DNA of 64,000 nucleotides from TPA_inf: Saccharomyces. Taxonomy: Eukaryota. The stretch is taken from assembly GCA_000146045.2 (NCBI GenBank), contig BK006942.2:375889-439888 (forward strand), given 5' to 3'. The notes under the pieces were generated by a model. That model saw only the letters and a list, made by a program, of their open reading frames with translations. It searched no databases and was not told the DNA's origin. Below, piece by piece: positions 11,285 to 48,870 of this stretch (positions are counted from its first letter, which is position 1; the number at the start of each line of letters is the position of its first letter). The translations under genes and the position numbers were made by a program.

Positions 11285-11286
<2 letters not shown>

Positions 11287-21194: not shown

Positions 21195-21405
21195 TACTTT
21201 TCCACGCTTGAAAGTTCGCATTCTTTTGGCGTTTTGTATCCTTATTATTCCAAACTTTGATCCGTTTCAACAACGGAAAAGGGAAAAATGAAAAAGTGCT
21301 GGTAAGTGAAAAATTATGAAAACTCGCTAAACGGCGAAGTTTAGATGTGAGACAAGCAGCAATGGAAGTATAGGTTGGTATTGAATATCTGTGGTTACTC
21401 TAAAG

Positions 21406-23888: not shown

Positions 23889-26801
23889 ATGGACCCTCAC
23901 CAATCACCAGCTGATAATGCCGCATCGCCTACGAAGAGCGTGAAGGCAACCACTAAAAATTCGTCCACGAATAATAATGTCAATAGCAACAACAGCAATA
24001 ATAACAGTAACCATGATATACTGAATTTTAATGATAACTATACTACCATTCTGCAACATTTGGCAAACGACCATCCTAATATACTGAGGGAGAAAGGAGG
24101 ATCACAACAACAACAGCATCAGCAGCAGCAACAACAGCAACAACAGCAGCAACAACAGCAGCAACAACAGAGCCTGGATACCCTTTTGCACCATTATCAA
24201 AGTTTACTCTCCAAGAGTGATAATGCAATAGCCTTTGATGACAATGTTAGTAACAGCGCAGATCATAATGGCAGTAATAGCAACAATAATAACAACAATA
24301 ATGACATATCTAGTCCCGGTAATCTGATGGGATCTTGCAATCAATGTAGATTAAAGAAAACAAAGTGCAACTATTTTCCCGACCTAGGCAACTGTCTCGA
24401 ATGTGAAACGTCAAGAACTAAATGCACCTTCAGTATTGCTCCAAATTATTTGAAAAGAACGTCCTCTGGGGCAAACAATAACATGCCAACCTCTTCAAAC
24501 TCCAAACGAATGAAAAATTTTGAAGACTATTCGAATCGCTTACCCAGTAGCATGCTCTATAGACATCAACAGCAGCAGCAACAGCAACAGCAGCAACAGC
24601 GTATACAATACCCCAGATCCTCTTTTTTCGTCGGTCCGGCCTCAGTTTTCGATTTGAACTTGACCAAGCATGTAAGACTAGATAATGTTGACCAAATACA
24701 GCTATCAAAAACTTTATCATTAAGAAAGGTGTCTCCTACCGCACAGTTTATTCTTCAGGACGATTTTGACACGACCCTTCATAGTAAGCAAGAATACGAA
24801 GTTGATTTGGTCGAAAATCTGGTACATCCGCACGGTCACCTTTTAGTAGAGATTTTCTTCAAATTGATTCATCCTTTTCTTCCAATTTTACACGAACGTG
24901 TATTTTTGGAAAAGTATTCTAGATCTTATAGAGAACTCACTGCGCCTTTACTGGCATCCATTTACTCACTGGCATTACAATATTGGGATTTTCATCCTGC
25001 ACTTTTGGGGTTCCCTAAACCCGATGTAACTGCTCAACTAAACAATATCGCATTGGAAACATTTTATGCTCGAGTTGGAAGGCCAAAATTGAGCATTATA
25101 CAAACAGGCCTTTTGATTTTGCAATGCCGTAGTGAATGTCATAACAACTGGGTCCTCTGCTCCAGCGTAGTGGCCCTTGCAGAGGAATTGGGGCTCGGGG
25201 TTGAATGTAATGATTGGAAACTTCCCAAATGGGAAAAAGATTTGAGAAAGAGATTAGCGTGGGCAGTTTGGTTGATGGATAAATGGTGTGCATTAAACGA
25301 AGGTAGACAATCCCATTTAATTTTAGGTAGGAACTGGATGATCAAGCTATTAAACTTTGATGATTTTCCTCTGAATTCGCCCACTATTTTAAATTCCTTG
25401 CAAAATGACCAGTCGGGGTCTTCACCCTCGTCATCAAATGATGTGAAAAACCATCAGATAGCATTTGGTAACTTGCCCATATTTAACATAAACCCCACTT
25501 TAGAAGATTTCAAGAATGGAACGCTTATGTTTCAACAAATGGTTTCCTTGAGTATAATTCTTGGGGAAATCATGGACACATTTTACACTCAGGGATCCAT
25601 GACAATAAACAAAAGCATTGAACAGGTATTGAAACTGGCAAAGCCGTTGCAACTGAAATTAAGAGAATGGTACCATTCCCTACCCAAGAATTTGTCAATG
25701 AGTTATGCCACGCCACAAAAATTGAACTCAAATTCAACTTTAACTCTAGCTTATTTTGCCACGGAAATTACGTTACATAGGAAAATTATCTGTGCCTTGA
25801 ATCCTCAAACTCCAAAGGAACTGGTTCAAGTATGCAGGACTGCTGCAAGAACCAGGCTTGTAGCAGCAATTGAATTTATAAGAGATCTAAAAAACGAACA
25901 TATTAATGCTTTTTGGTATAACTGCTCAACTGGAAATCTGATGCTAATTGGAACATTTGCTGCCCTGCTGTATGTGACTTCAGCTACGAAGGAAGAGGCT
26001 ATGATTTTCAGAGATTATGTTAGAAATTATACCTGGGTATTGAAGATAGGTTCCAAATACTTTGATAAACTATCGAATGCTTTGAATAATATGCATTTAC
26101 TATTTGCACAAATTCCTGGTCTTCTGACCGATGAACCGGTGGTCGTGAGCCCTAACTCTAACATCAATTCCGTTAACCCACAAAGGTCAGGTGTACAATC
26201 GCAAATCCCAATACAATTTAACGTGGGATCACCTGCCATGACCGAGCAAGGATCTCCTTTAAACCAGTGGAAGAATTTGCCCCAGGAAATCTTGCAACAA
26301 CTAAACTCCTTTCCCAACGGTACGACCAGTACAACAACGCCAGTAAACCCCACTTCCAGACAAACACAACTAGAATCGCAGGGAAGTCCAGCCATAAATA
26401 GTGCTAATAATAATAGCAACAACACGCCTTTACCATTTGCGCCAAATAAGTCTTCTAAAAAAACTTCACAATCTTCACCAAATGTTACGCCCTCTCATAT
26501 GAGCAGACACCCCCCCTCTAATACATCTTCACCAAGAGTCAATTCCAGCACAAATGTCAACTCTAATACACAAATGAATGCTTCTCCCTTGACCTCAATT
26601 AACGAAACCAGACAAGAGTCAGGTGACGCTGCAGATGAAAAAACAGCAGGAAGAGAAAGAACCGCCAACGAGGAATCATCAACGGAACTCAAGGACGATA
26701 ATCCAAACTCGAACCAGGAAACAAGCGCAACTGGTAACCAAACTATAAAAATGAATGATGATAAAAATGTAACAATTAACACAAGGGAAACCCCTCTGTA
26801 A
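23889..26801 (+). CDS. DAL81: Zn2Cys6 transcriptional activator Dal81/Uga35 (induction of allantoin, GABA, urea and amino-acid permease genes)
   Basis: 970 aa from the MDPHQSP start. Has a Zn(II)2Cys6 cluster CNQCRLKKTKCNYFPDLGNCLECETSRTKC, poly-Gln tracts and a fungal TF middle domain. Confidence 0.9.
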   Translation: MDPHQSPADNAASPTKSVKATTKNSSTNNNVNSNNSNNNSNHDILNFNDNYTTILQHLANDHPNILREKGGSQQQQHQQQQQQQQQQQQQQQQQSLDTLLHHYQSLLSKSDNAIAFDDNVSNSADHNGSNSNNNNNNNDISSPGNLMGSCNQCRLKKTKCNYFPDLGNCLECETSRTKCTFSIAPNYLKRTSSGANNNMPTSSNSKRMKNFEDYSNRLPSSMLYRHQQQQQQQQQQQRIQYPRSSFFVGPASVFDLNLTKHVRLDNVDQIQLSKTLSLRKVSPTAQFILQDDFDTTLHSKQEYEVDLVENLVHPHGHLLVEIFFKLIHPFLPILHERVFLEKYSRSYRELTAPLLASIYSLALQYWDFHPALLGFPKPDVTAQLNNIALETFYARVGRPKLSIIQTGLLILQCRSECHNNWVLCSSVVALAEELGLGVECNDWKLPKWEKDLRKRLAWAVWLMDKWCALNEGRQSHLILGRNWMIKLLNFDDFPLNSPTILNSLQNDQSGSSPSSSNDVKNHQIAFGNLPIFNINPTLEDFKNGTLMFQQMVSLSIILGEIMDTFYTQGSMTINKSIEQVLKLAKPLQLKLREWYHSLPKNLSMSYATPQKLNSNSTLTLAYFATEITLHRKIICALNPQTPKELVQVCRTAARTRLVAAIEFIRDLKNEHINAFWYNCSTGNLMLIGTFAALLYVTSATKEEAMIFRDYVRNYTWVLKIGSKYFDKLSNALNNMHLLFAQIPGLLTDEPVVVSPNSNINSVNPQRSGVQSQIPIQFNVGSPAMTEQGSPLNQWKNLPQEILQQLNSFPNGTTSTTTPVNPTSRQTQLESQGSPAINSANNNSNNTPLPFAPNKSSKKTSQSSPNVTPSHMSRHPPSNTSSPRVNSSTNVNSNTQMNASPLTSINETRQESGDAADEKTAGRERTANEESSTELKDDNPNSNQETSATGNQTIKMNDDKNVTINTRETPL

Positions 26802-28984: not shown

Positions 28985-30079
28985 TTATCTATTTACTTTC
29001 TCGGATTCAAAATTAACCATGTTGGGCAAAGCAGTGGATTGTAAGGGAAATTGATCCACTTTACTAGTTTGCAGGTGGATAGCGGGGATGACCCACTTAC
29101 CACAACTGCACCTAGATCCTTTCCAGTTGTAACCGCCAACTTTACTTGAACAGCCTGGACATGAAAACTTCCCTTCTAACTCTTGCTTGCCTTGTAGTTC
29201 AGGTTGCATCCATTTTAAAGGTTCGATGAAAAAATGAGAGCAATTTGCTTGTGACTCTTGAATATCAATAATACGATGGGAGTTGGCGGCCCTCTTGATG
29301 AAGTGTCCCTCTGATGATTCCTTACTTGGTGGGTCATGCGCGATGAAAGATGTAGATAACGCCAATTTGGTTCTGCACTTCTTACATCTCACTGCGGTGA
29401 CCTTGCTCTTCTCAGCTTCAGTTAATTTATCCAAGTCTTGCGACGACTCCGAATCTTTAAACATTCCAGAATTGGAGACCAATTCGCTGCCCGATGGATC
29501 TAACTTGATAGATTGCTTCAGCTTCCACTGCTTATAGGCTGGGTTGTCGAAATCGACAAAATCTCCACCCATTTTCTCAAAGAGATGTAATTGTTCCATG
29601 AAATTCTCGTTTGGCTCAACACTCGGTTTCTTCCTCTTGACAGCGTGCATAGCCATTGATAGTGACAATCCATAACGATACATTAGGTAGGCTACTATGA
29701 AGGTTACAGATCTCGAGAGTCCTGCTTGACAATGAGCAAAAACAGCACCACGTTGTGGTTTCTTCTTGAAATCTACTAATCTGGGCGAATACTCAACTTC
29801 ATTGGGGAACAAGCATTGATCAATGAATCGGTTCGTTTCATCGAAGTATTGCAGCACATCAGTCACATCATCATCATCGATGGGTATGTTTTTTAGCGTG
29901 TAACCTTTCCTTATTAGATACTCTGGAATGACCTGGAATTTGATAACAGAAAGAATATGAGTAATGTTAAATTCTGCACCCAATGGTCTGTGGTCAATAA
30001 TTGGACGGATTCCGCCAAGATATATGCCTCCTAATATCCTGGTAACTTCCTCGTCTACTGAGTTTGCATTTCCAGCCAT
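28985..30079 (-). CDS. YVH1: Dual-specificity protein phosphatase with a C-terminal zinc-binding domain
   Basis: 364 aa. Has the HCQAGLSRS catalytic CX5R motif and a Cys-rich C-terminus. Confidence 0.9.
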   Translation of the reverse strand: MAGNANSVDEEVTRILGGIYLGGIRPIIDHRPLGAEFNITHILSVIKFQVIPEYLIRKGYTLKNIPIDDDDVTDVLQYFDETNRFIDQCLFPNEVEYSPRLVDFKKKPQRGAVFAHCQAGLSRSVTFIVAYLMYRYGLSLSMAMHAVKRKKPSVEPNENFMEQLHLFEKMGGDFVDFDNPAYKQWKLKQSIKLDPSGSELVSNSGMFKDSESSQDLDKLTEAEKSKVTAVRCKKCRTKLALSTSFIAHDPPSKESSEGHFIKRAANSHRIIDIQESQANCSHFFIEPLKWMQPELQGKQELEGKFSCPGCSSKVGGYNWKGSRCSCGKWVIPAIHLQTSKVDQFPLQSTALPNMVNFESEKVNR

Positions 30080-30371
30080 CTTCCCTGTAATTTCTTGCTG
30101 CTTTTACTGCTTTCTCTGCGTTATACCTGTATTAGATGCATTCGATGAGCTGAGGTATAATTTTTTTTTTCAGTTAGATTTCTTTTTTTTAGCGCTAAGA
30201 AAATTTCAAAATTGCAGCCGTGGAGACCCAGATGGATATATTGTAGATCATTAAAAGTTGTGTCATCTCAAACTAAGAGTGGTTAATATATGTATGTGTG
30301 TAAATAACTTTTTATAAATTTGTTTCTTTTATTTCTATAGAATTTCTTTAATAAAAATTTGCAACTTTAGT

Positions 30372-31754
30372 TTAACGTCTAGAATCAAGCAAAGTTTGAC
30401 CCAATGGTGTTTTCGAGACTCCGTTGGCATTCGTATATACCACCTGGCCTCTTAATATGGTTTTCAAAACTGTGCCCTTGACCGTCATCCCGTTGTAGGC
30501 AGTCAATTTGTTTTTGAAGTAGACACTTGAATTACTTATTTTATGTTTACTTGCAGTATCAAATACCACCAAATCAGCATCGTACCCGGGAGCTATAGTG
30601 CCTTTTTGGTGAGATAGTCCTACCTGATGGGATGTATTTTTACAGCACCATGTAACGATATCGACCAAAGAGCAGCCTTGGGTAAACATCAATGGCAAAC
30701 CTAGTCCGACGGAAGCGATTCCTCCCCAAGAATCGAAAAAGTCACCTTTTTGCAAGTTCTTCAACTCAGGGGTGCATGGCGAATGGTCGCTCACTACTGA
30801 GCCTATAACACCTTCACGCAAAGCGTCCCATAGGCCTTGGCGATTAGACTCAGAGCGGATGGGTGGACAACATTTAAAGTAGGTGGCTCCGTCTGGGATC
30901 TGCTCTGCAGCAATACACAAATAGTGGAAACAAGTCTCTGTTGTGACTGGTAGCCCTGACGCACGTGCCTTTCTGATCAAGGGAATTGCTTTCATTGATG
31001 CCAGATGAACTATATGTACAGGAGGAACTGGTCCATTTCTGGCTCTCAAGCATTCGAGAATCAAATTGATGGCGTCTATTTCGAAAGAATCCGGCCTCGA
31101 GGACAAAAACGAAGAATATTCACGATGGCTTTGCTCGGGTTGCTGTTGGTCCTCATGTGCCTTGGGCAACTCAGCATGAAACATCATCATGGTATCCTCC
31201 TCGGCTAAGACCTTCAAGGCTTCTTCTATATATTCTTTGCCAATTGGAGGGAATTCTTCCACACCAGAATCAAGCAAGAATCCTTTGAACCCGCGAACGC
31301 CAGCTTTGACAAGCGGAATTAAGTCTGGCAAGTTGTGTGGTACCAGTCCACCCCAAAACCCAACATCGCACCACATTTGGCCCTCAGCAGCTTCCAATTT
31401 AATTCGGAAATTCTCCACATTTGTTGTGGGAGGAATAGCATTTAGCGGCATATCAACCACCGTTGTGACCCCGCCACTAATAGCAGCTTGAGTTCCAGTT
31501 TCGAATCCTTCCCAGCTAGTCCTACCGGGCTCGTTCAAGTGAACATGAGAGTCCACAAGTCCAGGCAGAATTGTACATGGAGATACGTTCTCCAGCGTAT
31601 GTATTTCATATTTGGTTATCTCAGTTTTCTCCATAACCACGGAGCCTTCTAAAACATCCAGAATCGTGCCTGATTCGGTCGAATACACAATAGTCGCAGG
31701 TTTATTTGCACCATTGATAATGACATGGTCGGAAGTGATGGCATTGATAGGCAT
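30372..31754 (-). CDS. DAL1: Allantoinase (cyclic amidohydrolase)
   Basis: 460 aa. Has the DSHVHL metal-binding motif of amidohydrolases and is the first gene of the DAL cluster. Confidence 0.9.
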   Translation of the reverse strand: MPINAITSDHVIINGANKPATIVYSTESGTILDVLEGSVVMEKTEITKYEIHTLENVSPCTILPGLVDSHVHLNEPGRTSWEGFETGTQAAISGGVTTVVDMPLNAIPPTTNVENFRIKLEAAEGQMWCDVGFWGGLVPHNLPDLIPLVKAGVRGFKGFLLDSGVEEFPPIGKEYIEEALKVLAEEDTMMMFHAELPKAHEDQQQPEQSHREYSSFLSSRPDSFEIDAINLILECLRARNGPVPPVHIVHLASMKAIPLIRKARASGLPVTTETCFHYLCIAAEQIPDGATYFKCCPPIRSESNRQGLWDALREGVIGSVVSDHSPCTPELKNLQKGDFFDSWGGIASVGLGLPLMFTQGCSLVDIVTWCCKNTSHQVGLSHQKGTIAPGYDADLVVFDTASKHKISNSSVYFKNKLTAYNGMTVKGTVLKTILRGQVVYTNANGVSKTPLGQTLLDSRR

Positions 31755-32579
31755 CTTTGTTCTTCGCAGTATTTCACTTTTTTTTTGCCTATACGTTTTT
31801 GCGAAATATACACTTTTCTAACCTAATTAAAGATAGCTAAAAGAAAAAGGGGTACCTTCAATTACAAGATACCAGTAGAAACTCATCACTTTTGCGTTAC
31901 CTCATCATTGTCCCCTTCGATGAGATATGCCTCCTCTATATAGATAATTAAGCACCGCAATTTTGAACCACTTCTCCTGATAAAGTTCCATCAGTCCACC
32001 ATCAACACATTTGCGCCTATTCGATGATCCGCAGTAAGGGACAATAGAATCGAAACATGCAGTTCCTTTCTTTCCTGCAATTCTCGGGTCTAATGTGGCT
32101 CGAGGGTATCTCTTATCGGTATTACTTTCTTATCAATGAAAAATTTCTGCCAGGGAAAATGCGCCCGCTTTTTTTCCGGCCATCCTTACTCGCTGTCGCA
32201 TACAAAATAGCGCCTCTAATCTAGTTGCGATAAGGAATGTGTATGTGTAATTGAAGATCCAGGATGTTTTCCTTTTCAGGGAGATGAGAAGGAATAATAG
32301 GATGGATTGACCGCTTTGCTGTCACGTCGATAAGGTTCCTTTAAAAATTGTGTCCAATGATTAGCATAGAGAGGTAGAGTATCAGAGAAACAAGTTTGTA
32401 ATCGAGAAACTTGATCTGCTAGTGTTGAGCATAGAAGGCTAGGAAAACATGGGGAAGAAAAAAAAAGTATAAATAATTAGCTTGATGAGTAGTTTGAATA
32501 TATATGTTACTTTAGTTTCCCTTTTTGACCTTTTATATTCATCTACATCTTGTGATATAAAACATCAACAAAGACGAGA
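31755..32579. promoter_or_regulatory. DAL1-DAL4 divergent promoter with multiple GATAA (Gln3/Gat1/Dal80) sites
   Basis: GATAA/GATAAG occurs at 31942, 32223 and 32321, and CTTATC at 32111 and 32130. There are partial UIS-like GAAAATGCGC / TTTTGCGTT elements. Confidence 0.6.
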
Positions 32580-34487
32580 ATGGCTAACGACGCTCTAAGT
32601 GCTATTTTCAGTAATCCTTCGAGGAAAGGTGTCCAACCCTCCACATCTATTGTGTCATATACAAACAATGAAGATGATATTATAGATGTGGAAAATGGGA
32701 AGTTCAACAAGAACAAGAATATCAACACTAATGTGTATGTGGACAACTCCTCAATAGAGGAGAGCGAAGTCGTGCCCTTGCCCGAAACAAAGTCCATCTG
32801 GAGTAAAATATACTACGATTTCATTGTGTTAGACAAGACAACTTTGAATGTTTCGTTGAAAGAGTCGTTCTTGTATAACAGAGACTTGAAACCGGTTGAA
32901 GAAGAAAGAAGGTGTTGGTCCTGGTTCAATTACTTATATTTCTGGCTGGCAGACTGTTTCAATATTAACACATGGCAAATAGCTGGTACAGGTCTACAAC
33001 TAGGTCTGAATTGGTGGCAATGTTGGCTTACAGTTTGGATCGGCTACACTTTTGCAGGTATCTTCGTAGTATTGAACTCGAGATTTGGTTCCGCATATCA
33101 CTTATCTTTCCCTATTACTGTTAGGGCCTCATTTGGTATATTCTTTTCTATGTGGCCGATTATAAATCGTGTCGTGATGGCTATAGTATGGTATGCCGTG
33201 CAAGCCTGGTTAGGTGCAACGCCCGTGGCACTGATGCTAAAATCTATTTTTGGCAAGAATCTGGAAGATAGAATCCCAAACCATTTTGGTTCTCCAAATA
33301 GCACTACTTTTGAATTCATGTGTTTCTTTATATTTTGGGTGGTCAGTATACCATTTGTCCTAGTGGCTCCTCATAAAATCAGGCATTTATTCACAGTAAA
33401 AGCAGCTTTGATCCCCTTCGCAGCCTTTGGATTTTTAATCTGGGCTTTGAAGAAATCGCACGGTAAAATTGAGTTGGGGACGCTGAATGATTATTCACCT
33501 CATGGTTCCGAATTTTCATGGATATTCGTTAGATCCCTAATGGCCTGTGTTGCTAACTTTGCCGCTTTGATTATCAACGCCCCTGACTTCGGTAGATTTG
33601 CCAAAAATCCTCAAGCGTCTTTGTGGCCACAATTGGTTGCCATCCCATTGTTCTTCGCCATAACATGTTTGATCGGTATCATTGTTACTGCGGCCGGTTA
33701 TCACTTATATGGGGTTAACTATTGGTCACCACTGGATGTACTTGGTCAATTTTTGGAGACCACTTACACCAGAGGTACTAGGGCTGGTGTGTTCTTGATT
33801 TCTTTTGTATTTGCCTTAGCTCAACTGGGTACAAACATTTCTGCCAACTCTCTGGCATGTGGTGCTGATATGACGGCTTTGTTTCCAAGATATATTAATA
33901 TTAGAAGAGGTTCTTTATTCTGTGTGGCAATGGCTCTATGTATCTGTCCATGGAACTTAATGGCCAGTTCAAGTAAGTTCACCAGCGCTTTGGGTGCTTA
34001 TGCAATTTTCCTTTCCAGTATTGCTGGTGTCATTTGCGCGGATTATTTCGTAGTAAGAAGAGGATATGTGAAATTAACACATTTATTCCTGGCACAGAAG
34101 GGTTCCTTTTACATGTTTGGAAACAAATTTGGTGCCAATTGGAGGGCCTTTGTTGCGTATATTTGCGGTATCGCTCCAAATTTACCAGGTTTTATAGGTG
34201 ATGTTGGAGCTCCAAAAATTACGGTTTCAGAGGGTGCAATGAGGTTATACTATTTAGGTTATCCGGTAGGTTTCTTTATTAGTGCGGTGATATACCTCAT
34301 ATTATGTTACTTTTTTCCTGTCCCTGGTACTCCCGTAACCAATTTTCTGACAGAGAAAGGATGGTTCCAAAGATGGGCTTATGTTGAGGACTTCGAGCAA
34401 GATTGGAAGAATGAGTTACGTAGGGATGACCTCTGCGATGACACAGTCAGTATCTATGATGGCACCGAGGAAAAGATAGTTTACTAA
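32580..34487 (+). CDS. DAL4: Allantoin permease (NCS1 family transporter)
   Basis: 635 aa with about 12 TM segments. Resembles uracil/allantoin permeases. Confidence 0.9.
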   Translation: MANDALSAIFSNPSRKGVQPSTSIVSYTNNEDDIIDVENGKFNKNKNINTNVYVDNSSIEESEVVPLPETKSIWSKIYYDFIVLDKTTLNVSLKESFLYNRDLKPVEEERRCWSWFNYLYFWLADCFNINTWQIAGTGLQLGLNWWQCWLTVWIGYTFAGIFVVLNSRFGSAYHLSFPITVRASFGIFFSMWPIINRVVMAIVWYAVQAWLGATPVALMLKSIFGKNLEDRIPNHFGSPNSTTFEFMCFFIFWVVSIPFVLVAPHKIRHLFTVKAALIPFAAFGFLIWALKKSHGKIELGTLNDYSPHGSEFSWIFVRSLMACVANFAALIINAPDFGRFAKNPQASLWPQLVAIPLFFAITCLIGIIVTAAGYHLYGVNYWSPLDVLGQFLETTYTRGTRAGVFLISFVFALAQLGTNISANSLACGADMTALFPRYINIRRGSLFCVAMALCICPWNLMASSSKFTSALGAYAIFLSSIAGVICADYFVVRRGYVKLTHLFLAQKGSFYMFGNKFGANWRAFVAYICGIAPNLPGFIGDVGAPKITVSEGAMRLYYLGYPVGFFISAVIYLILCYFFPVPGTPVTNFLTEKGWFQRWAYVEDFEQDWKNELRRDDLCDDTVSIYDGTEEKIVY

Positions 34488-34918
34488 ATAAAAATCCCAA
34501 TTTATTCTCTTACCAGTAGTGATCAGGAGAATTGATAATTTCTTCAAAACACCTTAATATTCGTTCTGTGTATTTTTATGTACCTTTCTTAATCAAATTT
34601 ATCAGCTTCATACATGCATTCCCGTCTGAATAATGTACTGATGATTAGCTAAACCGTCATCAACCTACCAAACTTGCGCTTGTTTGAGCCTATCAGAACT
34701 CCGGATAATTCCGACATCTTATCTTTGACTCGAATTAGCGATAAGATAAAAACACAGGAACCACAATGAAATTCAGCTGGAAGAAAAGTCTAAATTATAG
34801 ACACATTTTCTGAGATCAAATGCTATAAAGGAATGGAAGTGCATTTTGCTATGATATGGGGAAATTATGAAGCCGATCAAACAATTAATTGTATCTAATC
34901 GGTCTCTTCTTTAGAAAA

Positions 34919-35950
34919 ATGAAGTTTTTTAGTTTGGCAGATGAGGCAGAATTTAAGTCAATAATCATTTCAAAAAACAAAGCAGTAGATGTTATAGGAT
35001 CTAAGTTAGGTGGTCAAGTGGTTTCTTTTTCAGATGAATGGTTTGCTTCTGCTGAAAATTTAATTCAGCCAACTGCTCCTATAAGGGATCCTACCAGATT
35101 TGTTCATTCAGGCGCATGGTACGACGGCTGGGAAACACGAAGACATAATGAGATGGAATACGATTGGGTTATCATCAAGATGGGAGTCGCTGCTGCCCAT
35201 ATTATTGGTGGTGAAATTGACACTGCGTTTTTCAATGGTAATCATGCACCATTTGTATCAATAGAGGCGCTCTATGACGAGGGCGAAGAAGGTAATATAG
35301 TGGAAGATGACTCGCGTTGGGTTGAGATTGTTGAGAAATTTGAGTGTGGTCCTTCGCAAAGGCATCTTTTCGTTAGAGGCAACGGCCTTACTAAAGAAAG
35401 GTTTACTCACATCAAGCTGAAGATGTACCCCGATGGAGGAATCGCCAGATTTAGATTATACGGAAGAGTTGTTCCTCCAGAACTCAAAACGAAGGATCAT
35501 ATAATTGACTTGGCTTATGTTTGCAATGGTGCTGTCGCTTTAAAGTATTCTGACCAACACTTCGGTTCAGTTGATAATTTGCTACTGCCAGGTCGAGGTC
35601 ATGATATGTCGGACGGCTGGGAAACCAAAAGATCGAGACAACCAGGTCATACTGATTGGGCGGTAATTCAACTGGGCAGGGAGTCTTCTTTCATTGAGAA
35701 GATTATTGTTGATACGGCACACTTCAGGGGGAACTTCCCTCAGTTCATTACCGTGGAAGGTTGCTTGAAGGAGTCAGAATCAAGTGAGAACACTGGTGAA
35801 GGAACATGGGTAGAGCTAGTTGGTAAGTCAAAGACGGGGCCTGACAAAGAACATGTGTATGAAATACGTAAGAGTATAAGAGTCTCCCATGTCAAATTAA
35901 CGATTATTCCAGATGGAGGAGTGAAAAGAATAAGAGTTTGGGGGTACTGA
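34919..35950 (+). CDS. DAL2: Allantoicase (duplicated allantoicase repeat)
   Basis: 343 aa from the second Met. An internal duplication is visible (GSKLGGQVVS.../GSVDNLLLPG...). GATAAGATAA and CTTATC lie upstream at about 34708..34748. Confidence 0.9.
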   Translation: MKFFSLADEAEFKSIIISKNKAVDVIGSKLGGQVVSFSDEWFASAENLIQPTAPIRDPTRFVHSGAWYDGWETRRHNEMEYDWVIIKMGVAAAHIIGGEIDTAFFNGNHAPFVSIEALYDEGEEGNIVEDDSRWVEIVEKFECGPSQRHLFVRGNGLTKERFTHIKLKMYPDGGIARFRLYGRVVPPELKTKDHIIDLAYVCNGAVALKYSDQHFGSVDNLLLPGRGHDMSDGWETKRSRQPGHTDWAVIQLGRESSFIEKIIVDTAHFRGNFPQFITVEGCLKESESSENTGEGTWVELVGKSKTGPDKEHVYEIRKSIRVSHVKLTIIPDGGVKRIRVWGY

Positions 35951-36147
35951 TAAATACTTAACTACTGTATATTTTAAACCAATGCACTCTTGGCACTTTA
36001 AAAGTAAAGGTATAAATGTAGTTAAAAGTTTTTGTTTTGATAATTGAATGTTTTCATTTCGCTATCCCCACGCTACTTTATTTACTTCTTCTTCTTCACG
36101 ACAAAACATTAAAATTTACACTCTATAAAAAACAATCATATTTCTAT

Positions 36148-36882
36148 TTATTTTTGTGAGTTGACAAATCTTATCATAGTGATTAGAATCTGTAAACCGA
36201 TCTCAATCGTGTCCAGAAACAGCGTGCCATCCCTTTGGAATGTTTTCGCCAGTTTATTTTGCAAACCCGAGAATCCTGCACAACCTAATATTACAATGTC
36301 TGAATCAAGCTTTTTAATATTTTCGCGATATATAATTTCTGCTATCTGCTGGAAATTTTCTGGACTATGTAGGTCGAGGACCTGTAAATCAGTAGATACC
36401 GTACCTTTCCATAAATTTTTGTTAACTGTATTCCCTGTCAAGAATTTCGATTCCACAGAGTTATTCAATATTGGAATCCATTCTTTATTTGAAGTAATAA
36501 TAGAGAACTTCTTTCCAACCAAATTGCAATAATTAATACTACTATCTAATAACCCAACAATAGAAACATCTGCTTTTTCTTTAGCAGCTCTATCCTTTAT
36601 CTTTGCTACCAAAGGATGATCTGAAAAACAGGCAATTAATATCCCGTTGAATTTCTGAAAGTAATATACCGACTCCTGGTCATCAATTAAGAGGGGAAGA
36701 CAGGCCTCCATACTTTTAATACTTGTTTCCTGCCCATCAATTTGTGGTGGCGACGTGTCTGGCCCTGTGAAATAACTGATTTTACATGATTCCATTGAAA
36801 AAGTCTTTTCAATGGTTTCCCGCAAGGACACCGTCATTGACTTCGAACTATTAGGATTCACAACAAGTATTCTTGTTTCCAT
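36148..36882 (-). CDS. DCG1: Dal80-controlled gene product, Asp/Glu-hydantoin racemase-like
   Basis: 244 aa. Length and position match YIR030C within the DAL cluster. Confidence 0.8.
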   Translation of the reverse strand: METRILVVNPNSSKSMTVSLRETIEKTFSMESCKISYFTGPDTSPPQIDGQETSIKSMEACLPLLIDDQESVYYFQKFNGILIACFSDHPLVAKIKDRAAKEKADVSIVGLLDSSINYCNLVGKKFSIITSNKEWIPILNNSVESKFLTGNTVNKNLWKGTVSTDLQVLDLHSPENFQQIAEIIYRENIKKLDSDIVILGCAGFSGLQNKLAKTFQRDGTLFLDTIEIGLQILITMIRFVNSQK

Positions 36883-37126
36883 CGTTCGATAATTTGCTTA
36901 GCTAGTTTTTCTTTGTTCTTTTGATTTTCCTGAGGTAAGAATTAGTAATTCAGTTTCCTTACATATTCTCGCTTCAAAGGCTTAAATATGATCTGGCATG
37001 GAGAAAAAATATGAGTTCAATTTGTCATACCTTATCAGGCCTTATCAGCTCAAATTTGATTGGATTATGCGTTAAAACAGCGCCTAAAATTCTTCGAATA
37101 TTCGTCAGGTTATGTACGTATACATT

Positions 37127-38791
37127 CTATAATTTACTTAAGTCAACTGGTTTGGCACTTGGCTTAATAATTTCATCATACAATAAAGTGGTCAAGAAGT
37201 CGCTAAAGATTTTACCAGTGACTTCAGGCAAAAAATACTTGGCTGCCAAGGCAAACTTGTTCTTTTCACCCAGCGGACTTGCTGAAGCCAATTTTGCAGT
37301 CTCTTCATTTAATATCTTAGCGGTCAATTCTGGAGTTACTTTGTCACCGGTATCACTTAAGACAACACCATGTTTAACCCACTGGTACAATTGACAACGT
37401 GATACTTCCGCAGTAGCGGCATCTTCCATCAAATGATTAATTGGGACACAACCAGATCCCCTTAACCAAGCCTCCATATATTGTAGGCCAATATCCAAGT
37501 TTACTCTGATTCCCTCAGTAGTGACTTGAGCATCTTGAATCTTCGTATTCAATAAATCAGATGATGTAACATGTACATCCGGGACAAAATATATTTGATT
37601 TGCTGTACCCATGTTACTGAAAACTTCATTACAAATCGGTGCCAATGCTGGGTGTGCTACCCATGACCCATCATGCCCATTCTTCATTTCTCTAATTTTG
37701 TCATTACGAACTTTGTTCATTGCAGCTTCATTAGCCTTTGGATCATCTTTTATGGGGATTTGGGCAGCCATACCACCCATCGCATGGACCCCTCTACGGT
37801 GACATGTATTGATCAATCTTTTCACATAAGCATCCATAAAAGGTGAAGTCATAGTCACTAGATCCCTATTTGGCAAAACGTGTTCAGGCAAGTTTCTCAG
37901 TTTTTTAATGGTCGAAAATATGTAGTCCCAACGACCACAGTTCAAACCGCTTGAATGTTCTCTTATTTGATAGATAATCTCCTCCATTTGGAAGGCCGCT
38001 GGCAAAGTTTCAATCAGAACAGTGGCCCTAATGGTACCGCGGGGCATTCCAATAAAATCTTGTGCAACACAGAATATGTCATTCCATAGTTTTACCTCCA
38101 TATGGTGCTCCATCTTTGGTAAGTAAAAATAAGGTCCTTTACCAATTTTAACTAACTCTTTAGCGTTATGGTAAAAATATAAACCAAAATCGAAGATGGA
38201 AGCACTAATCGGTTCATCATCTATGTAAAGGTGCTTCTCCACCATGTGCCAGCCACGAGGTCTGACAATTAAAGTGGGCAGTCTTGAAATGTCATCCTTC
38301 AACCTGTACTCCTTTCTTGGTGTCTTGAAATCGATTTGATTTCTAATGGCATCATAAAGATTAACTTGTCCGTAAATCATGTTCTCCCAAGTTGGAGATG
38401 AAGAGTCCTCGAAATCAGTCATATATGTCGTTACTTCAGCATTCAAAGCGTTGACTAACATATTTCTCAATGGTGGCCCAGTAATCTCGCTGGATCTGTT
38501 GATCAAACCAGGGGCTGGGATAGCACCTTGCCATGTAGGATCGTTCCTGATTTGTTCGGTTTCCGGCAAGAAATCAAATCGGTATTCACCAGAGTCTAAC
38601 TTTGATTGTAAATTGCTTCTGTTGGCTAAAAGCTGTTTCCGTGTTGAATTGAAAGTTCTATGCAGCAAAACAATGAACTCTAAGGCATCTTTTGTTAAAA
38701 TATCAGCTACAGTAGTTTTGGAAGGTTCAAATTGAGGAGTCGTGTCGATGTCTGCGTATAGAGCAGTGTTGTCCAAGCTTATCTTCACCAT
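37127..38791 (-). CDS. DAL7: Malate synthase (allantoin pathway isozyme)
   Basis: 554 aa. Has conserved malate synthase motifs and a C-terminal SKL peroxisomal targeting signal. Confidence 0.95.
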
Positions 38792-39007
38792 TGTTCAGTG
38801 CTCTTTACCGTGCCTATGACACATACTCTAAGTGATATCAACTGCACAGAAAGTGAAGAATTAAGACTACATGCGTAAATGTCCCCATTTTATACTTATT
38901 GCTTCACCAATTGACGAAACTATCCAATCTTTGTGATACTTTCACGATGTACCTTATCCAAGATAAGCCAAAACTTATGAAATTCAATTTATGTGATAAG
39001 AAAAGCA

Positions 39008-39019
39008 AACGCAATTTTC
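39008..39019 (-). promoter_or_regulatory. UIS-ALL element (GAAAATTGCGTT in the gene orientation), the Dal82/Dal81-dependent inducer element, in the DAL7 promoter
   Basis: Exact 12-mer AACGCAATTTTC on the + strand is the reverse complement of the UIS consensus. It is flanked by GATAAG/CTTATC sites at 38953, 38962 and 38993. Confidence 0.7.
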
Positions 39020-39141
39020 CAAAATCCGCGGTATTCTATCGCACCGCAACTTTCAGCGGAGATTTTATGTCGATAATCGTAAACCTATGAAATTACTAAT
39101 ACATGAACATTTACATATTTACTTCGCCCACAGTCGCAGAA

Positions 39142-39729
39142 TTAGATGATAATACAAACGTCGCCATCGCTGTAGTGTTCTTCCACACAGTCCTTCTCGG
39201 GCCTGTCAGGGTCCAGACTTTCGTAGATTAAGACTGAAAAATCCAAATGTTCTTCCTTGCCAAGTACTATCATGGGCGCATGCCAGGTACCTAAGCCATA
39301 GGTAACGGCCTGATTACCCAAACATGTAAAAGCCCTCAACGTAGACAAGTCTGGCTTATTTCCAATTTCTTTAGCGACTACTACCAAGTATGCTACTTCC
39401 GCTGACGTTCTCCCCATAGGCACAAACGTCTGCGTACTACACGGATGCTTTTCGAGGACTTTGATAGAATGAGAAATCGCCTGATTGGAGCCTTGAGTGA
39501 ATACTCTATTCAGGTGCGGCTGTGGAAAGCAACGGAATAGGTTCCAATTGGGAACTTTACTGGTAGATTTATTCTCTACCTGGCTTACTTGAAGCAATTT
39601 GATCGCTGTTCCCTGGTTTGCACCTTTTTCAAGGTTTTGCATCCTTGAAATCTCTTCATCTGGCGAAATTATCGTCCCATACTCCTCGAAGGACTCTTTC
39701 GTCAATGTCTCCGCCACCACGGTCACCAT
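39142..39729 (-). CDS. DAL3: Ureidoglycolate lyase (ureidoglycolate hydrolase)
   Basis: 195 aa. Last gene of the DAL cluster. GATAAG at 39753 and CTTATCTTATC at about 39880 lie in its promoter. Confidence 0.85.
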   Translation of the reverse strand: MVTVVAETLTKESFEEYGTIISPDEEISRMQNLEKGANQGTAIKLLQVSQVENKSTSKVPNWNLFRCFPQPHLNRVFTQGSNQAISHSIKVLEKHPCSTQTFVPMGRTSAEVAYLVVVAKEIGNKPDLSTLRAFTCLGNQAVTYGLGTWHAPMIVLGKEEHLDFSVLIYESLDPDRPEKDCVEEHYSDGDVCIII

Positions 39730-40235
39730 ATCTTTGCTTCAAAGATTTTTTGCCCTACAAGATAAGCATCAAGAGCGATTGGATGACAGTTACTGACTTA
39801 TATATGCGAATGCACATGAATAGACCGCATATGCTTCTTATCAGTCTTACCTCGCTTATCTTTCCCCATTTATTTGCCAATCCATCTTATCTTATCTGGC
39901 ACTTTGTCTCAGGGTTAGTGTTACAAAAAGGCTAGGACTTATTTCCAAAATTCTACTTTTGAAAATAACCCTAACAATAAAAGCAAGGGCATTCTGATGT
40001 TACCCTAGAAATGTCGTATTTCTTTTTATATCGTGGATCATGACAAAAAACTCAACATTTTCAAATGGGTGAGCTCTAAACCAGAAAATACAGCCGCCGA
40101 AAGCCTTTTAAAAGGACAGCGGCGCTTGATCAACAGTCGTTCTTGGGGTCGTTAAGACTAGATCCTGCTTCCCCCCCTTATTGTGCATTTAAAGGCACTT
40201 ATTGAAGGTCATTTTGGCGAACAGAACATTTCGTT

Positions 40236-43200
40236 ATGCAGCAGAACAGTGAGTTCTTAACGGAAACACCTGGAAGCGACCCTCATATATCTCAATTGCA
40301 CGCGAATAGCGTAATGGAATCACAGCTCTTGGACGATTTCCTCCTGAACGGGTCTCCCATGTACCAGGATGATAGCATGGCGCATATTAATATTGATGAG
40401 GGTGCTAATTTCCAAAATTTTATCAAGACAGATGAGGGTGATTCGCCCAACCTGTTGTCTTTCGAAGGTATCGGTAACAATACTCATGTCAACCAAAACG
40501 TGTCCACTCCACTGGAGGAGGAAATGGAAAGTAACAGAGCCTTGAAGGAGGAAGAAGAGGACGAGCATGAAAATAAGGTTTTTAATGAAAAAAATATAGG
40601 CAACCCTGCTCATGACGAGATTGTATTTGGAAGAAAGGAGACGATTCAATCTGTTTACATAAATCCTTTAGATTACCTTAAAGTGAACGCAGCGCAGCTA
40701 CCTTTGGATGTAGAGGTCTCAGGTTTGCCACAAGTATCTAGAGTGGAAAATCAACTGAAACTGAAAGTGAAAATTACGTCTGAAACACCACTAAACCAAA
40801 GCATGCTTTACTTGCCTAGCGATTCCATTTCAAGAGAAAAGTTTTATTTAAAAAAAAATATCGAGGATTTTTCAGAAGACTTCAAGAAAAATCTTCTGTA
40901 CATCAATGCGTTTGTTCTATGTGCGGTCAGCAACAGAACGACAAATGTTTGTACCAAGTGTGTTAAGCGAGAACAAAGAAGAGCCGCTAGAAGGAAATCA
41001 GGTATTGCAGACAATTTACTCTGGTGTAATAATATTAATAGAAGGTTAGTCGTGTTCAATAACAAACAGGTTTTCCCCATAATGAAAACTTTCGATAATG
41101 TTAAGGAGTTTGAATTAACTACCAGGCTAGTTTGTTATTGCAGGCACCATAAGGCAAATAATGGCTTTGTCATATTATTCACTATAACAGATTGGCAAAA
41201 TAGACTGTTGGGTAAGTTTACGACAACACCTATTATGATCACGGATAGAAAACCAGCAAATATGGATACCACCAAGTTTAATAACACTACTACCTCGTCC
41301 AGAAGGCAGCTAACGGAAGAAGAATCTACCACAGAATATTATTCAACGGATAACAACCAATTGAGCAAAGACGAAAATATGCCATTTCAATATACTTATC
41401 AACACAACCCATATGATAATGACAGTCAAATGAATAATATTCCACTGAAAGACAAAAACGTACCATTCCCATATTCCATCTCTCAACAGACAGATTTGCT
41501 TCAGAACAATAACTTATCACTGAACCTTTCTCTGCCCAATCAGCATATTCCATCACCAACATCTATGAGCGAAGAAGGCTCAGAATCATTTAACTATCAT
41601 CATCGCGATAATGACAATCCCGTCCGTACTATCTCTTTGACAAATATTGAACAACAGAGTCAATTGAACCAACGGAAAAGAGCACGCAATAATTTGGAAA
41701 ATGACATTGGTAAACCCCTATTCAAGCATTCCTTTTCAAATTCAATCAGTGCAACAAATACGATGAATCCAGCTTTACATTCAATGCAAGATTTCTCAAT
41801 GAAAAACAACAACAATAATTTGCCATCAATTAATCGCGTTATACCTTCACAAGGCCCAATCAATGGTGGTATCGAAGTTACATTACTGGGTTGTAACTTC
41901 AAAGATGGTCTTTCTGTAAAGTTCGGCTCTAATCTTGCCCTTTCTACGCAATGCTGGAGTGAGACCACGATCGTCACTTATCTCCCTCCCGCTGCCTACG
42001 CGGGTCAAGTTTTCGTCTCTATTACTGATACGAATAATGAAAATAATAACGATGACCTTCCCCAAGAAATTGAGATCAATGACAATAAAAAGGCCATATT
42101 TACCTATGTTGATGATACTGATAGGCAACTGATTGAATTGGCTTTGCAAATTGTGGGATTAAAAATGAATGGTAAGTTAGAAGATGCAAGAAATATCGCG
42201 AAGAGGATTGTTGGCAATGATTCTCCTGATAGCGGTACAAATGGCAACAGCTGTTCAAAAAGCACAGGTCCCTCTCCAAACCAACACAGTATGAATCTGA
42301 ACACAAGTGTTCTTTACTCCGATGAAGTCTTGATACAAAAAGTTATAAAATCATTGAACATAAATTCCAATATTTCCATATGTGATTCATTAGGGAGAAC
42401 TTTATTACATCTTGCCTGTTTGAAAAATTACTCAAGCCTTGTGTATACATTGATTAAAAAGGGTGCTCGTGTTAACGATATTGATTCCTTTGGGCTAACT
42501 CCATTACATTTTGCTTGCATAAGTGGTGACCCTAAAATTATTAAGATGCTTTTAAATTGTAAAGTAAATTATTCACTGAGGTCACACAACGGATTAACTG
42601 CAAGAGAAGTATTCATAGCAAACCACATTCATTCAAAGGAAATAGACAAAAAACAAGATAACAGAGACAACCATAAGTTTGTTCATAATGACACTTATAT
42701 CAGCGAAGTATTGTCATTGTTTGAAGAATTCCAAAACGGTACGAAGTTTACCGATAGTGTAGAAACAGACAGTAATTATTCTATTAGCAGGAAATATTCA
42801 CAATCCAGTTTCAATTCAAGCCTGCTAGACAATGAATCTTTGAATGAGAACTTATTCGAAAGCCAAAGCATGATAAATCCCACTTCTATGGAGATTCAGC
42901 ATCCAACCTTGCAACTATTTGAGAATTCAAGTTACTCTGAGTACGACCAAAGTGATTTCGAAGAAGACGGGGATGAAGATCTGTTCGTCACTGACGAAGT
43001 AGAAAAACCAGGTGTTGCATGCAGGGAGGAACAAAGCGAACTCCTTGATATTGGATCTAGCGCCAACGAACCCGAAGAGGATAATGGTAGTACATCTCTC
43101 TGGAATAGAGTTTTACATCGAATTAATGATGACTTACCAAAATATGAGGATCTGTTCCCGTTGTCTTGGGGTAAAGATGATAAATTGAAAACCACAAATC

Positions 43201-43577
43201 AAGACAGTATTGTGGAGCAGTCAGCATCTAATATTGAAAACTCTGAAAATTCGGAGGAAGAGGATTATGAGGAAGAGGAAGAATTTTTGAAAAAACAGTT
43301 TAACAGATTCTTCCAAAACAAACAAAACTTCCGAAATGATAAAATGTTAATATTTTTCTGGATACCCTTAACACTACTACTTTTGACATGGTTCATCATG
43401 TACAAATTTGGCAACCAAGATAGTTCCATCAATCATATAAGCGAATTAATCTCAGAGTACTTGAGAATTGCATTAGCAAAGTTCTTGCTGGGAAATGAAA
43501 GGATGAAAACTGCATTCAGGTCAAAATTATCAAACCTGCAAACAACAAGAATGTTGAACGATTTAATTGTCAGTTAG
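40236..43577 (+). CDS. MGA2: ER-membrane-tethered transcription factor regulating OLE1 (IPT/TIG domain, ankyrin repeats, C-terminal TM anchor)
   Basis: 1113 aa. Has an IPT-like region, ankyrin repeats (LLHLACLKNYSSLVYTLIKKGARVND...), and a C-terminal hydrophobic anchor (IFFWIPLTLLLLTWFIMY). Confidence 0.9.
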   Translation: MQQNSEFLTETPGSDPHISQLHANSVMESQLLDDFLLNGSPMYQDDSMAHINIDEGANFQNFIKTDEGDSPNLLSFEGIGNNTHVNQNVSTPLEEEMESNRALKEEEEDEHENKVFNEKNIGNPAHDEIVFGRKETIQSVYINPLDYLKVNAAQLPLDVEVSGLPQVSRVENQLKLKVKITSETPLNQSMLYLPSDSISREKFYLKKNIEDFSEDFKKNLLYINAFVLCAVSNRTTNVCTKCVKREQRRAARRKSGIADNLLWCNNINRRLVVFNNKQVFPIMKTFDNVKEFELTTRLVCYCRHHKANNGFVILFTITDWQNRLLGKFTTTPIMITDRKPANMDTTKFNNTTTSSRRQLTEEESTTEYYSTDNNQLSKDENMPFQYTYQHNPYDNDSQMNNIPLKDKNVPFPYSISQQTDLLQNNNLSLNLSLPNQHIPSPTSMSEEGSESFNYHHRDNDNPVRTISLTNIEQQSQLNQRKRARNNLENDIGKPLFKHSFSNSISATNTMNPALHSMQDFSMKNNNNNLPSINRVIPSQGPINGGIEVTLLGCNFKDGLSVKFGSNLALSTQCWSETTIVTYLPPAAYAGQVFVSITDTNNENNNDDLPQEIEINDNKKAIFTYVDDTDRQLIELALQIVGLKMNGKLEDARNIAKRIVGNDSPDSGTNGNSCSKSTGPSPNQHSMNLNTSVLYSDEVLIQKVIKSLNINSNISICDSLGRTLLHLACLKNYSSLVYTLIKKGARVNDIDSFGLTPLHFACISGDPKIIKMLLNCKVNYSLRSHNGLTAREVFIANHIHSKEIDKKQDNRDNHKFVHNDTYISEVLSLFEEFQNGTKFTDSVETDSNYSISRKYSQSSFNSSLLDNESLNENLFESQSMINPTSMEIQHPTLQLFENSSYSEYDQSDFEEDGDEDLFVTDEVEKPGVACREEQSELLDIGSSANEPEEDNGSTSLWNRVLHRINDDLPKYEDLFPLSWGKDDKLKTTNQDSIVEQSASNIENSENSEEEDYEEEEEFLKKQFNRFFQNKQNFRNDKMLIFFWIPLTLLLLTWFIMYKFGNQDSSINHISELISEYLRIALAKFLLGNERMKTAFRSKLSNLQTTRMLNDLIVS

Positions 43578-45137: not shown

Positions 45138-45902
45138 TCAAGGCATAAAGTCCGCCAAGGCAGGGTCATTATAGCTCAAGTACTGTCCATTAACACCGTC
45201 AGGAATACCATGAAGGGCCAATTTGGCATAAACTGTAGCTGGCACAGAGCTATCCAGCAACTGGTTATTCTCCTTTAAACCTCTAAACATCTTCAATTGC
45301 TCTGCACTCATGGAGGAAGGCCCCACGTTCTCCCTAATGTTAACTTGCATATCTGTGTCCACAATACCTGGGGCGACGGCAATGGCTTTCACTTGCCTTT
45401 CCTCGTTGGCCAGAGTCATGGCGAAGTGGTTCAGAGCGGCTTTTGAAGAACCGTAAGCTCCCCAACTGCTGAAGTACATGTTACAGGCGTCCGAACTGAC
45501 GAATACCACGTTACCGTTGGTCTTCTTCAATTCAGGTAACGCAATGCCAACCAAGGAAACAATGCTGAAGAAGTTGATGTCATACAGCTTCTTCCAAGCG
45601 TTGACATCAATCTCGTTGACATTTTGCACGGGCTCTAGGACACCAGCGTTGGCAACCAAGGAGTCGATCTTGCCGTGGCCCTTAACAGCAGCGTTAACCA
45701 ACTGCTTCAACACGGAATCCTCGGTAATATCACCGACAACGTAAAAAAACCTGTCGCCATACTTCTCTTTCAACTTCTTCAAGGGTGCCTCAGACCTGGC
45801 TACACCGTAAACAACCGTGTCCTTGTCCAAACTGAAAAGAACATCCACGATGGACTTACCGATACCTCTGGAAACACCTGTAACTAAAATAACTTTACCC
45901 AT
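45138..45902 (-). CDS. Short-chain dehydrogenase/reductase (NADPH-dependent), YIR035C
   Basis: 254 aa. Has the TGxxxGIG Rossmann motif and the YxxxK catalytic motif (YGSSK). It is a paralog of the adjacent IRC24, about 50% identical. Confidence 0.85.
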   Translation of the reverse strand: MGKVILVTGVSRGIGKSIVDVLFSLDKDTVVYGVARSEAPLKKLKEKYGDRFFYVVGDITEDSVLKQLVNAAVKGHGKIDSLVANAGVLEPVQNVNEIDVNAWKKLYDINFFSIVSLVGIALPELKKTNGNVVFVSSDACNMYFSSWGAYGSSKAALNHFAMTLANEERQVKAIAVAPGIVDTDMQVNIRENVGPSSMSAEQLKMFRGLKENNQLLDSSVPATVYAKLALHGIPDGVNGQYLSYNDPALADFMP

Positions 45903-48625: not shown

Positions 48626-48725
48626 AATGCTTCCTTGATTTACCTTTTCCCTCTCATTTTAGGTTGTTGTAAAAAATATCAACGATCGTTTTATATATAA
48701 GGATTCTGCCATAGTATTTCAACGT

Positions 48726-48870
48726 TATCCACTTCCCCTAAATTTTCACCATACTGGAGCGAGCGGGTACGAGGTGAAAATCATTAGTAAATGGCCGTAG
48801 CATGAAAAGTGCGATTGTCATAGTAACAAGGAGGGGCTTATCCTTGGCTATTGCGAGGCACCCCCTCTGT
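48726..48870. promoter_or_regulatory. GTT1 upstream stress elements: three STREs (CCCCT at 48735..48739, AGGGG at 48832..48836, CCCCT at 48862..48866) and a Yap1-type TTAGTAA at 48784..48790
   Basis: Exact motif matches within 250 bp of the GTT1 ATG. Confidence 0.5.

Follow-up and report, generated by a model that had tools for sequence, protein, structure and literature searches.

In the 64-kb stretch of DNA analysed here (hereafter the window), six adjacent genes at 30372-39729 almost certainly constitute the DAL cluster for allantoin catabolism of Saccharomyces cerevisiae (YIR027C-YIR032C), which enables baker's yeast to obtain nitrogen from allantoin, which is co-regulated by promoter elements and which originated by relocation after the whole-genome duplication (WGD). 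The window corresponds to the last 64 kb at the right end of chromosome IX, in its reference-strain form, as follows from the exact matches to the S288C proteins and from the irregular TG1-3 telomere repeats that occupy its last 74 bases (63927-64000). In an exact-sequence look-up, Ina22, Mnd2, Yvh1, Dal1, Dal4, Dal2, Dcg1, Dal7, Dal3 and Mga2 were all identical to their S288C counterparts. The list of open reading frames (ORFs) contains six long ORFs without overlap that span precisely the interval given above in the layout DAL1(-) DAL4(+) DAL2(+) DCG1(-) DAL7(-) DAL3(-), flanked by YVH1 and MGA2. The ORF coordinates therefore confirmed the six adjacent genes that had been proposed in a preliminary description of this DNA, and the identity, order and orientation that it had assigned to them were borne out as well. 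In comparison with the S288C DAL cluster on the right arm of chromosome IX, the six proteins, the gene order and orientation, the flanks and the distance to the telomere repeats were the same and no differences were found; no evidence that contradicts the identification was seen. The whole locus is textbook biology that has already been described by Wong and Wolfe in 2005 and in later papers, and we agree with the preliminary description that it is a known locus. Its recognition from the raw sequence adds no new yeast biology. The DAL cluster is a classic eukaryotic metabolic gene cluster built by relocating unlinked genes, and it has been invoked for selection on gene order with regard to co-regulation, chromatin domains, epistasis and the avoidance of toxic glyoxylate.

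The products of the cluster can be arranged into a catabolic route. Allantoin is imported by Dal4 (32580-34487, plus strand), an allantoin permease of the NCS1 family with 635 amino acids (aa), which is an exact match to NP_012294.3 of S288C, contains the Pfam domain Transp_cyt_pur (3e-178) and scored 629 bits against the TIGR00800 ncs1 model. The ring of allantoin is then opened to allantoate by the allantoinase Dal1 (30372-31754, minus strand; 460 aa; Pfam Amidohydro_1, 6e-47; exact match to NP_012293.3 of S288C), whose score against the TIGR03178 allantoinase model was 481.7 bits at a cut-off of 357.85. The allantoicase Dal2 (34919-35950, plus strand; 343 aa) converts allantoate into urea and ureidoglycolate. 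It has two repeats of the Pfam domain Allantoicase (3e-101), is an exact match to ALLC_YEAST of S288C, exceeded the cut-off of TIGR02961 with 434.7 bits, and is the yeast allantoicase that has been crystallised (PDB 1sg3/1o59, E 1e-239, residues 1-343). The mechanical ORF list starts DAL2 at a TTG at 34889, which is an artefact of the bacterial start rule, and it is the ATG at 34919 that yields the protein of 343 aa. A second urea and glyoxylate are released from ureidoglycolate by the ureidoglycolate lyase Dal3 (39142-39729, minus strand; 195 aa; Pfam Ureidogly_lyase, 3e-45; exact match to ALLA_YEAST of S288C). Glyoxylate and acetyl-CoA are condensed to malate by the malate synthase isozyme Dal7 (37127-38791, minus strand; 554 aa; Pfam MS_N, MS_TIM-barrel and MS_C; exact match to NP_012297.3), which scored 877 bits against TIGR01344 malate_syn_A, so that glyoxylate is removed. 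The curated NCBIfam cut-offs of equivalog or subfamily models were exceeded by Dal1, Dal2, Dal4 and Dal7, and the steps of the pathway are established in yeast biochemistry and in the literature (PMC11869459, PMC3646786, PMC4589623). The preliminary description had called the pathway complete. This holds for the route from allantoin to urea and glyoxylate or malate but not beyond it, as the cluster encodes six of the eight pathway proteins, whereas the genes for the breakdown of urea (DUR1,2) and for the uptake of allantoate (DAL5) are located outside it (PMC3419248, PMC11869459).

The sixth gene, DCG1 (36148-36882, minus strand), encodes a protein of 244 aa from the Asp/Glu/hydantoin racemase family (Pfam Asp_Glu_race, PF01177, 4e-30; exact match to DCG1_YEAST), which, judging by its homologues, is probably an allantoin racemase (EC 5.1.99.3). 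When a profile of 20 fungal Dcg1 homologues was searched against PDB, only bacterial allantoin racemases were matched (3qvj, 5e-15; 5lfd, 3e-11). Besides belonging to this family, Dcg1 has both catalytic-type cysteines: Cys85 and Cys201 are invariant among the 20 fungal homologues and align with the cysteines in the IACFGD and LGCGGM motifs of the two bacterial enzymes. Although these enzymes, HpxA/AllR, share the Pfam family and both active-site-type cysteines with Dcg1, the overall similarity is low, with single-sequence E values of 6e-6 (3qvj) and 1.5e-5 (5lfd). No NCBIfam model matched Dcg1. The protein is termed an "allantoin racemase" or a "probable allantoin racemase" in PMC3646786 and PMC11869459; however, no racemase assay or demonstrated allantoin racemisation was found in the papers that could be consulted. 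A racemase at this point would supply (R)-allantoin to an S-specific allantoinase, and it is the sole step of the pathway that we infer from homology only.

The regulatory signal in the cluster lies in the spacers that carry promoters. Intergenic DNA was defined as the sequence left over once the longest ATG ORFs (100 aa or more, without overlaps) had been removed, GATAA was counted on both strands, and the remaining intergenic DNA of the window served as the background. In the five promoter-bearing spacers (DAL1/DAL4, DAL2, DCG1, DAL7 and DAL3/MGA2; 2356 bp), there were 24 GATAA sites, or 10.2 per kb, compared to 67 sites in the remaining intergenic DNA (21.7 kb), or 3.09 per kb, and to 2.6 per kb in coding DNA. 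This corresponds to a 3.3-fold enrichment (P ~5e-6, conditional binomial) and agrees with the density above background that the preliminary description had expected. The longer GATAAG motif, to which the GATA factors of nitrogen catabolite repression bind, was enriched 11-fold (P ~1e-9), with 16 sites in the promoter spacers and 13 elsewhere in intergenic DNA (6.8 vs 0.6 per kb), and every promoter spacer had at least one pair of GATAA sites no more than 35 bp apart. Moreover, three-way alignments of the five spacers with their orthologous counterparts from S. uvarum and S. arboricola revealed that 12 of the 24 GATAA sites were identical in all three species of Saccharomyces, compared to 281 of 2312 (12%) other 5-mers from the same spacers (P 7e-6). 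The divergent DAL1/DAL4 promoter (31755-32579) contains six GATAA sites, five of which are conserved in the three species; four are GATAAG, a count that was reached by 3 of 1000 dinucleotide shuffles. The DAL2 promoter, which is also the 3' region of DAL4 (34488-34918), has six sites as well (13.9 per kb; reached by 15/1000 shuffles), including a pair (34740 and 34745) that is conserved across the three species. There are three sites in the DCG1 promoter, i.e., the 3' region of DAL7 (36883-37126), including two GATAAG that are 10 bp apart at 37032 and 37042, the former being conserved in the three species. The DAL7 promoter, or the 3' region of DAL3 (38792-39141), has four sites, three of them GATAAG (reached by 1/1000 shuffles), with those at 38962 and 38995 conserved in the three species. 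In the divergent DAL3/MGA2 promoter (39730-40235), all five sites are GATAAG (reached by 0/1000 shuffles), and those at 39761 and 39892 are conserved in the three species.

The spacer between DAL2 and DCG1 (35951-36147) is convergent, consists of two 3' ends and has no promoter. Its single GATAA at 36039 is at chance level (455/1000 shuffles reach it) and is not conserved, and a spacer that lacks a promoter and is poor in GATAA is what the regulatory reading predicts. The statement in the preliminary description that every intergenic region of the cluster carries multiple GATAA sites is therefore accurate for the five promoter spacers but not for this one. Similar observations were made in two other clustered species, in which the density of GATAA in the cluster spacers exceeded the background (7.2 vs 1.2 per kb in Naumovozyma castellii and 6.3 vs 2.8 per kb in K. 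naganishii); GATAAG was also enriched there and the convergent spacers were again poor in sites. An autonomously replicating sequence (ARS) was reported between DAL2 and DCG1 (PMC3419248). In this spacer (74% A+T), no 11/11 match to the ARS consensus was found, only 10/11 matches at 36103-36113 (minus strand) and 36140-36150 (plus strand), and the reported ARS could not be confirmed from the sequence alone.

The second type of element is the upstream induction sequence (UIS), for which the published Dal82 motif AAaNwTgyG (PMC1435934) was used. This motif has 18 matches in the window, five of which fall within 3.7% of the sequence (P 4e-4), in the DAL1/DAL4, DAL2 and DAL7 promoters. The count of UIS motifs per promoter, which had been suggested in the preliminary description, showed enrichment within the window. 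The motif is found at 31956 and 32344 in the DAL1/DAL4 promoter and at 34670 in the DAL2 promoter, while no match to it occurs in the DCG1 or DAL3/MGA2 promoters. The DAL7 promoter contains a UIS(ALL)-type dodecamer, GAAAATTGCGTT, at 39008-39019 on the minus strand, i.e., in the orientation of DAL7, which is a putative Dal82 site. Its exact sequence occurs only once in the 64-kb window and also matches AAaNwTgyG, and S. uvarum has the same core, CGCAATTTT. This dodecamer is reportedly the DAL7 UIS that was described by van Vuuren and Cooper in 1991. A further Dal82-like site in the same promoter (39045) does not differ between the three species of Saccharomyces.

Elements of the GATAA type and of the Dal82 type are thus present, enriched and conserved in the DAL promoters. 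The DAL genes are separate transcription units, which are almost certainly co-regulated by the clustered GATAAG sites in each promoter-bearing spacer. Gln3 and Gat1 would activate transcription through GATAAG and Dal80 and Gzf3 would repress it, which constitutes nitrogen catabolite repression as known from binding reported in the literature, and the UIS elements for Dal82/Dal81 in the DAL1/DAL4, DAL2 and DAL7 promoters would serve induction. It was previously described that Gln3/Gat1 act via UAS-NTR, Dal80 via URS-GATA and Dal81/Dal82 via UIS, and that the chromatin of the cluster involves H2A.Z and Hst1-Sum1 (PMC3419248). Several points limit this reading. In the individual spacers, the number of GATAA sites was only modestly above that in the dinucleotide shuffles (15 to 99 of 1000 reached the observed count); the enrichment was measured against the background of the 64-kb window and not of the genome; and the sites described here are predicted, with the binding of the factors at DAL sites taken from the literature. 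The GATAAG counts of the individual spacers were clearer (0 to 48 of 1000 shuffles), and the strength of the GATAA case lies in the pooling of the spacers, in GATAAG and in the conservation rather than in single-spacer counts. The claim that co-regulation by nitrogen catabolite repression is visible in the sequence holds in this sense, by statistics and conservation, with the factor binding coming from the literature. A comparable system is the yeast GAL1-GAL10-GAL7 cluster, which is likewise catabolic, with separately transcribed and co-regulated genes, and which is named beside DAL (PMC3419248, PMC4629796). Unlike DAL, it has three genes, is controlled by Gal4/Gal80, is found at a conserved internal site and lies outside the window.

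As for the origin of the cluster, the dispersed DAL genes would have been brought together, after the WGD, at a telomere-proximal site that is bordered by YVH1 and MGA2. Wong and Wolfe (2005, Nat Genet 37:777) had already concluded that the genes were relocated, as summarised in PMC4629796 and PMC3419248, and the DAL genes were reported to be dispersed in all non-WGD species (PMC4629796). Both S. uvarum and S. arboricola have a collinear cluster with all six genes and the YVH1/MGA2 layout. In two non-WGD yeasts, Torulaspora globosa and Zygosaccharomyces rouxii, the DAL2 orthologues are solitary, with no other DAL gene within 10 kb, and have common neighbours (Methyltransf_16, a large zf-C2H2 gene, Dus, Cupin_5 and Peptidase_M28). 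The DCG1 orthologues are also solitary in T. globosa and Lachancea thermotolerans, where they lie on a different chromosome from DAL2 and share the neighbours ArfGap, Pmp3, RPAP1, Kre28 and Fumble. The non-WGD orthologues of the traced DAL genes have 38-66% identity and conserved chromosomal sites. Both genes that flank the cluster are outside the pathway: YVH1 on the left (28985-30079, minus strand; exact match to NP_012292.3) and MGA2 on the right (40236-43577, plus strand; exact match to NP_012299.1; Pfam SPT23_MGA2_DBD, TIG and Ank). Around YVH1, the gene order of T. globosa and Z. rouxii is LYS1, WD40, MGA2, PPTA, YVH1 and MND2, compared to MND2, YVH1, six DAL genes, MGA2 and LYS1 in S. 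cerevisiae. The interval between YVH1 and MGA2 in the two non-WGD species contains one PPTA gene (prenyltransferase alpha, RAM2-like; 8924-9859 in locus L005 and 8802-9731 in locus L006, compared with 30080-40235 of the window) and no DAL gene. On the S. cerevisiae track, the PPTA gene is gone and the six DAL genes occupy its place. We take the PPTA gene to be RAM2, retained beside SPT23 on the sister region. In T. globosa, the chromosome record starts ~29 kb from YVH1, and in Z. rouxii this gene is ~56 kb from a contig end; the insertion site in T. globosa is already near a chromosome end. The preliminary description had stated that the cluster was assembled by relocation and had suggested a synteny comparison with pre-WGD yeasts; in that comparison, DAL2 and DCG1 were dispersed and the YVH1-MGA2 site was empty of DAL genes. 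Relocation is thus supported by an independent reproduction for two of the six genes, DAL2 and DCG1, and for the target site. What tells against a wider conclusion is that the homologue searches in the non-WGD yeasts covered DAL2, DCG1 and YVH1 only and excluded DAL1, DAL3, DAL4, DAL7 and DAL81.

The clusters of two other post-WGD species differ in their layout. In N. castellii (L001, 9526-20303), the order is DAL2-DAL4-DAL1-DCG1-DAL7-DAL3, i.e., DAL2-DAL4-DAL1 is inverted compared to S. cerevisiae, and the cluster is found ~10-20 kb from the contig end beside Flo11-domain and Sir1-like genes. Neither YVH1 nor MGA2 was found within 10 kb of it, and the orthology of its site with that of S. cerevisiae was not confirmed. 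The cluster of Kazachstania (Huiozyma) naganishii (L002, 9486-21026) has seven genes, with an additional, DAL5-like MFS transporter between DAL2 and DAL3; its order differs from that of S. cerevisiae and it is placed in the middle of a chromosome (555-576 kb of 993 kb). The N. castellii cluster of six genes and the K. naganishii cluster of seven resemble that of S. cerevisiae in the adjacency of the six families, the retention of DCG1-DAL7-DAL3 and the GATAA-rich promoters, while the N. castellii cluster departs from it in the order of DAL2-DAL4-DAL1, in its flanks and in its location ~10-20 kb from a contig end.

These comparisons also bear on other explanations of the cluster. Among them, the one that survives best, though we consider it unlikely, is that the adjacency is a functionally neutral by-product of rearrangement-prone chromosome ends and that the GATAA sites were inherited from the former locations of the genes and are unrelated to clustering. 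The near-end sites in S. cerevisiae (24-34 kb from the telomere) and N. castellii (~10-20 kb from the contig end) would fit such an origin, as would the fact that genes under nitrogen catabolite repression that have GATAA, such as DAL5 and DUR1,2, function unlinked (PMC11869459). However, the cluster has survived the inversions in N. castellii, a change of chromosomal site and the recruitment of a seventh gene in K. naganishii. Moreover, its presence in post-WGD species is all-or-none (PMC4629796), and engineered inversions alter expression and fitness (PMC3419248). It is far less probable that the cluster is ancestral and that the dispersed arrangement of the non-WGD yeasts is secondary, by break-up. 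The DCG1-DAL7-DAL3 sub-block does have an equal relative order and orientation in all of the clustered species examined and is old within the post-WGD yeasts, but the non-DAL neighbours of DAL2 are common to Torulaspora and Zygosaccharomyces and those of DCG1 to Torulaspora and Lachancea, and because an identical dispersal in separate genera would have to be assumed, an ancestral cluster is unparsimonious. In addition, the YVH1-MGA2 slot had no DAL genes in both of the non-WGD species that were checked, and the dispersal reported for all non-WGD species (PMC4629796) points the same way; we rejected an ancestral cluster on the conserved solitary contexts of DAL2 and DCG1 and on the empty slot. 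Acquisition of the block by horizontal transfer, e.g., from a bacterial allantoin operon, has a negligible probability and was rejected, since, despite the bacterial family counterparts of all six proteins (AllB, allantoicase, ureidoglycolate lyase, malate synthase A, NCS1 permease and allantoin racemase), it is refuted by the vertical non-WGD orthologues of the traced genes with the identities and conserved sites given above, and is opposed by the genes being on both strands with eukaryotic-type promoters, by a G+C content (0.37-0.42) in line with that of the surrounding chromosome, and by DAL4/FUR4 and DAL7/MLS1 being WGD paralogue pairs (PMC4629796).

Relocation into the YVH1-MGA2 slot placed the cluster near the telomere but not within the subtelomeric families. 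The cluster is located at 24.3 to 33.6 kb from the end of the chromosome, with the start of DAL3 at 24,271 bp from it, and approximately eight ordinary ORFs, which range from MGA2 and LYS1 to a YPS-type aspartyl protease, separate it from the first PAU gene (58041). The cluster thus lies on the centromere-proximal side of the PAU and DUP/COS families and is not part of them, and synteny with the non-WGD yeasts extends over MGA2 and LYS1. The term "sub-telomeric" has been used for the DAL cluster (PMC3419248), and the preliminary description had also referred to a subtelomeric site; this was correct as far as proximity to the telomere is concerned, but not as a location inside the subtelomeric families, and "telomere-proximal" is the more accurate term. 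The subtelomeric zone itself (58041-64000) contains a PAU/seripauperin gene (58041-58415), a GNAT gene (59385-60095) and an ORF of the DUP/COS family (61155-61847) as well as an exact ARS consensus at 63218-63228.

On the other side of the cluster, directly to the left of INA22 (YIR024C), there is an ORF of 970 aa with Zn2Cys6 and Fungal_trans domains and a long polyglutamine tract (23889-26801, plus strand). It is assigned to YIR023W/DAL81 because of where it lies, which domains it has and which orthologues were found for it in S. uvarum and S. arboricola; its exact-sequence look-up gave no match. DAL81 is the activator that is required for the induction of the DAL genes. It is 3.6 kb from DAL1 with three unrelated genes in between, and it has the same place in S. 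uvarum and S. arboricola, while in T. globosa and Z. rouxii the 10 kb on either side of YVH1 do not contain it. A Zn-cluster gene near YVH1 in T. globosa was considered as DAL81 and rejected, as it had no DAL81 match; judging by its neighbours, we assume that it is probably PUT3-like. The break in synteny with the non-WGD yeasts falls exactly between MND2 and INA22, and DAL81 may therefore have arrived by rearrangement. That the functional DAL neighbourhood is larger than six genes and that DAL81 was also brought beside the cluster by rearrangement and not by chance is, nevertheless, a speculative idea to which we give little credence.

Further features were noted elsewhere in the window. No tRNA genes (ARAGORN) and no RNA families (Rfam) were found in the whole window. 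FLO11 is located at 13684-17787 on the minus strand (Flo11 domain, 1367 aa) and contains ~1.6 kb of 45/81/126-bp tandem repeats at 15216-16853, which account for the strong GC skew at 14-18 kb. In the 3.6 kb upstream of FLO11 (17788-21405), there is only one short ORF of 100 aa (18367-18669). A second ORF-poor interval of 4.2 kb (9459-13683) extends from a bZIP gene to the 3' end of FLO11 and includes a 29-base poly-A at 11256-11284. A 6-kb stretch at 48626-54609 separates a GST gene (GTT1-like) from an aspartyl protease gene (YPS-like). It contains no ORF that starts with ATG and reaches 100 aa, no tRNA, no Rfam match and no internal repeats, and is unusually long for yeast intergenic DNA. 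Additionally, two tandem short-chain dehydrogenase paralogues (45138-45902 and 46186-46977, minus strand) share one orientation and are found a short way distal to LYS1.

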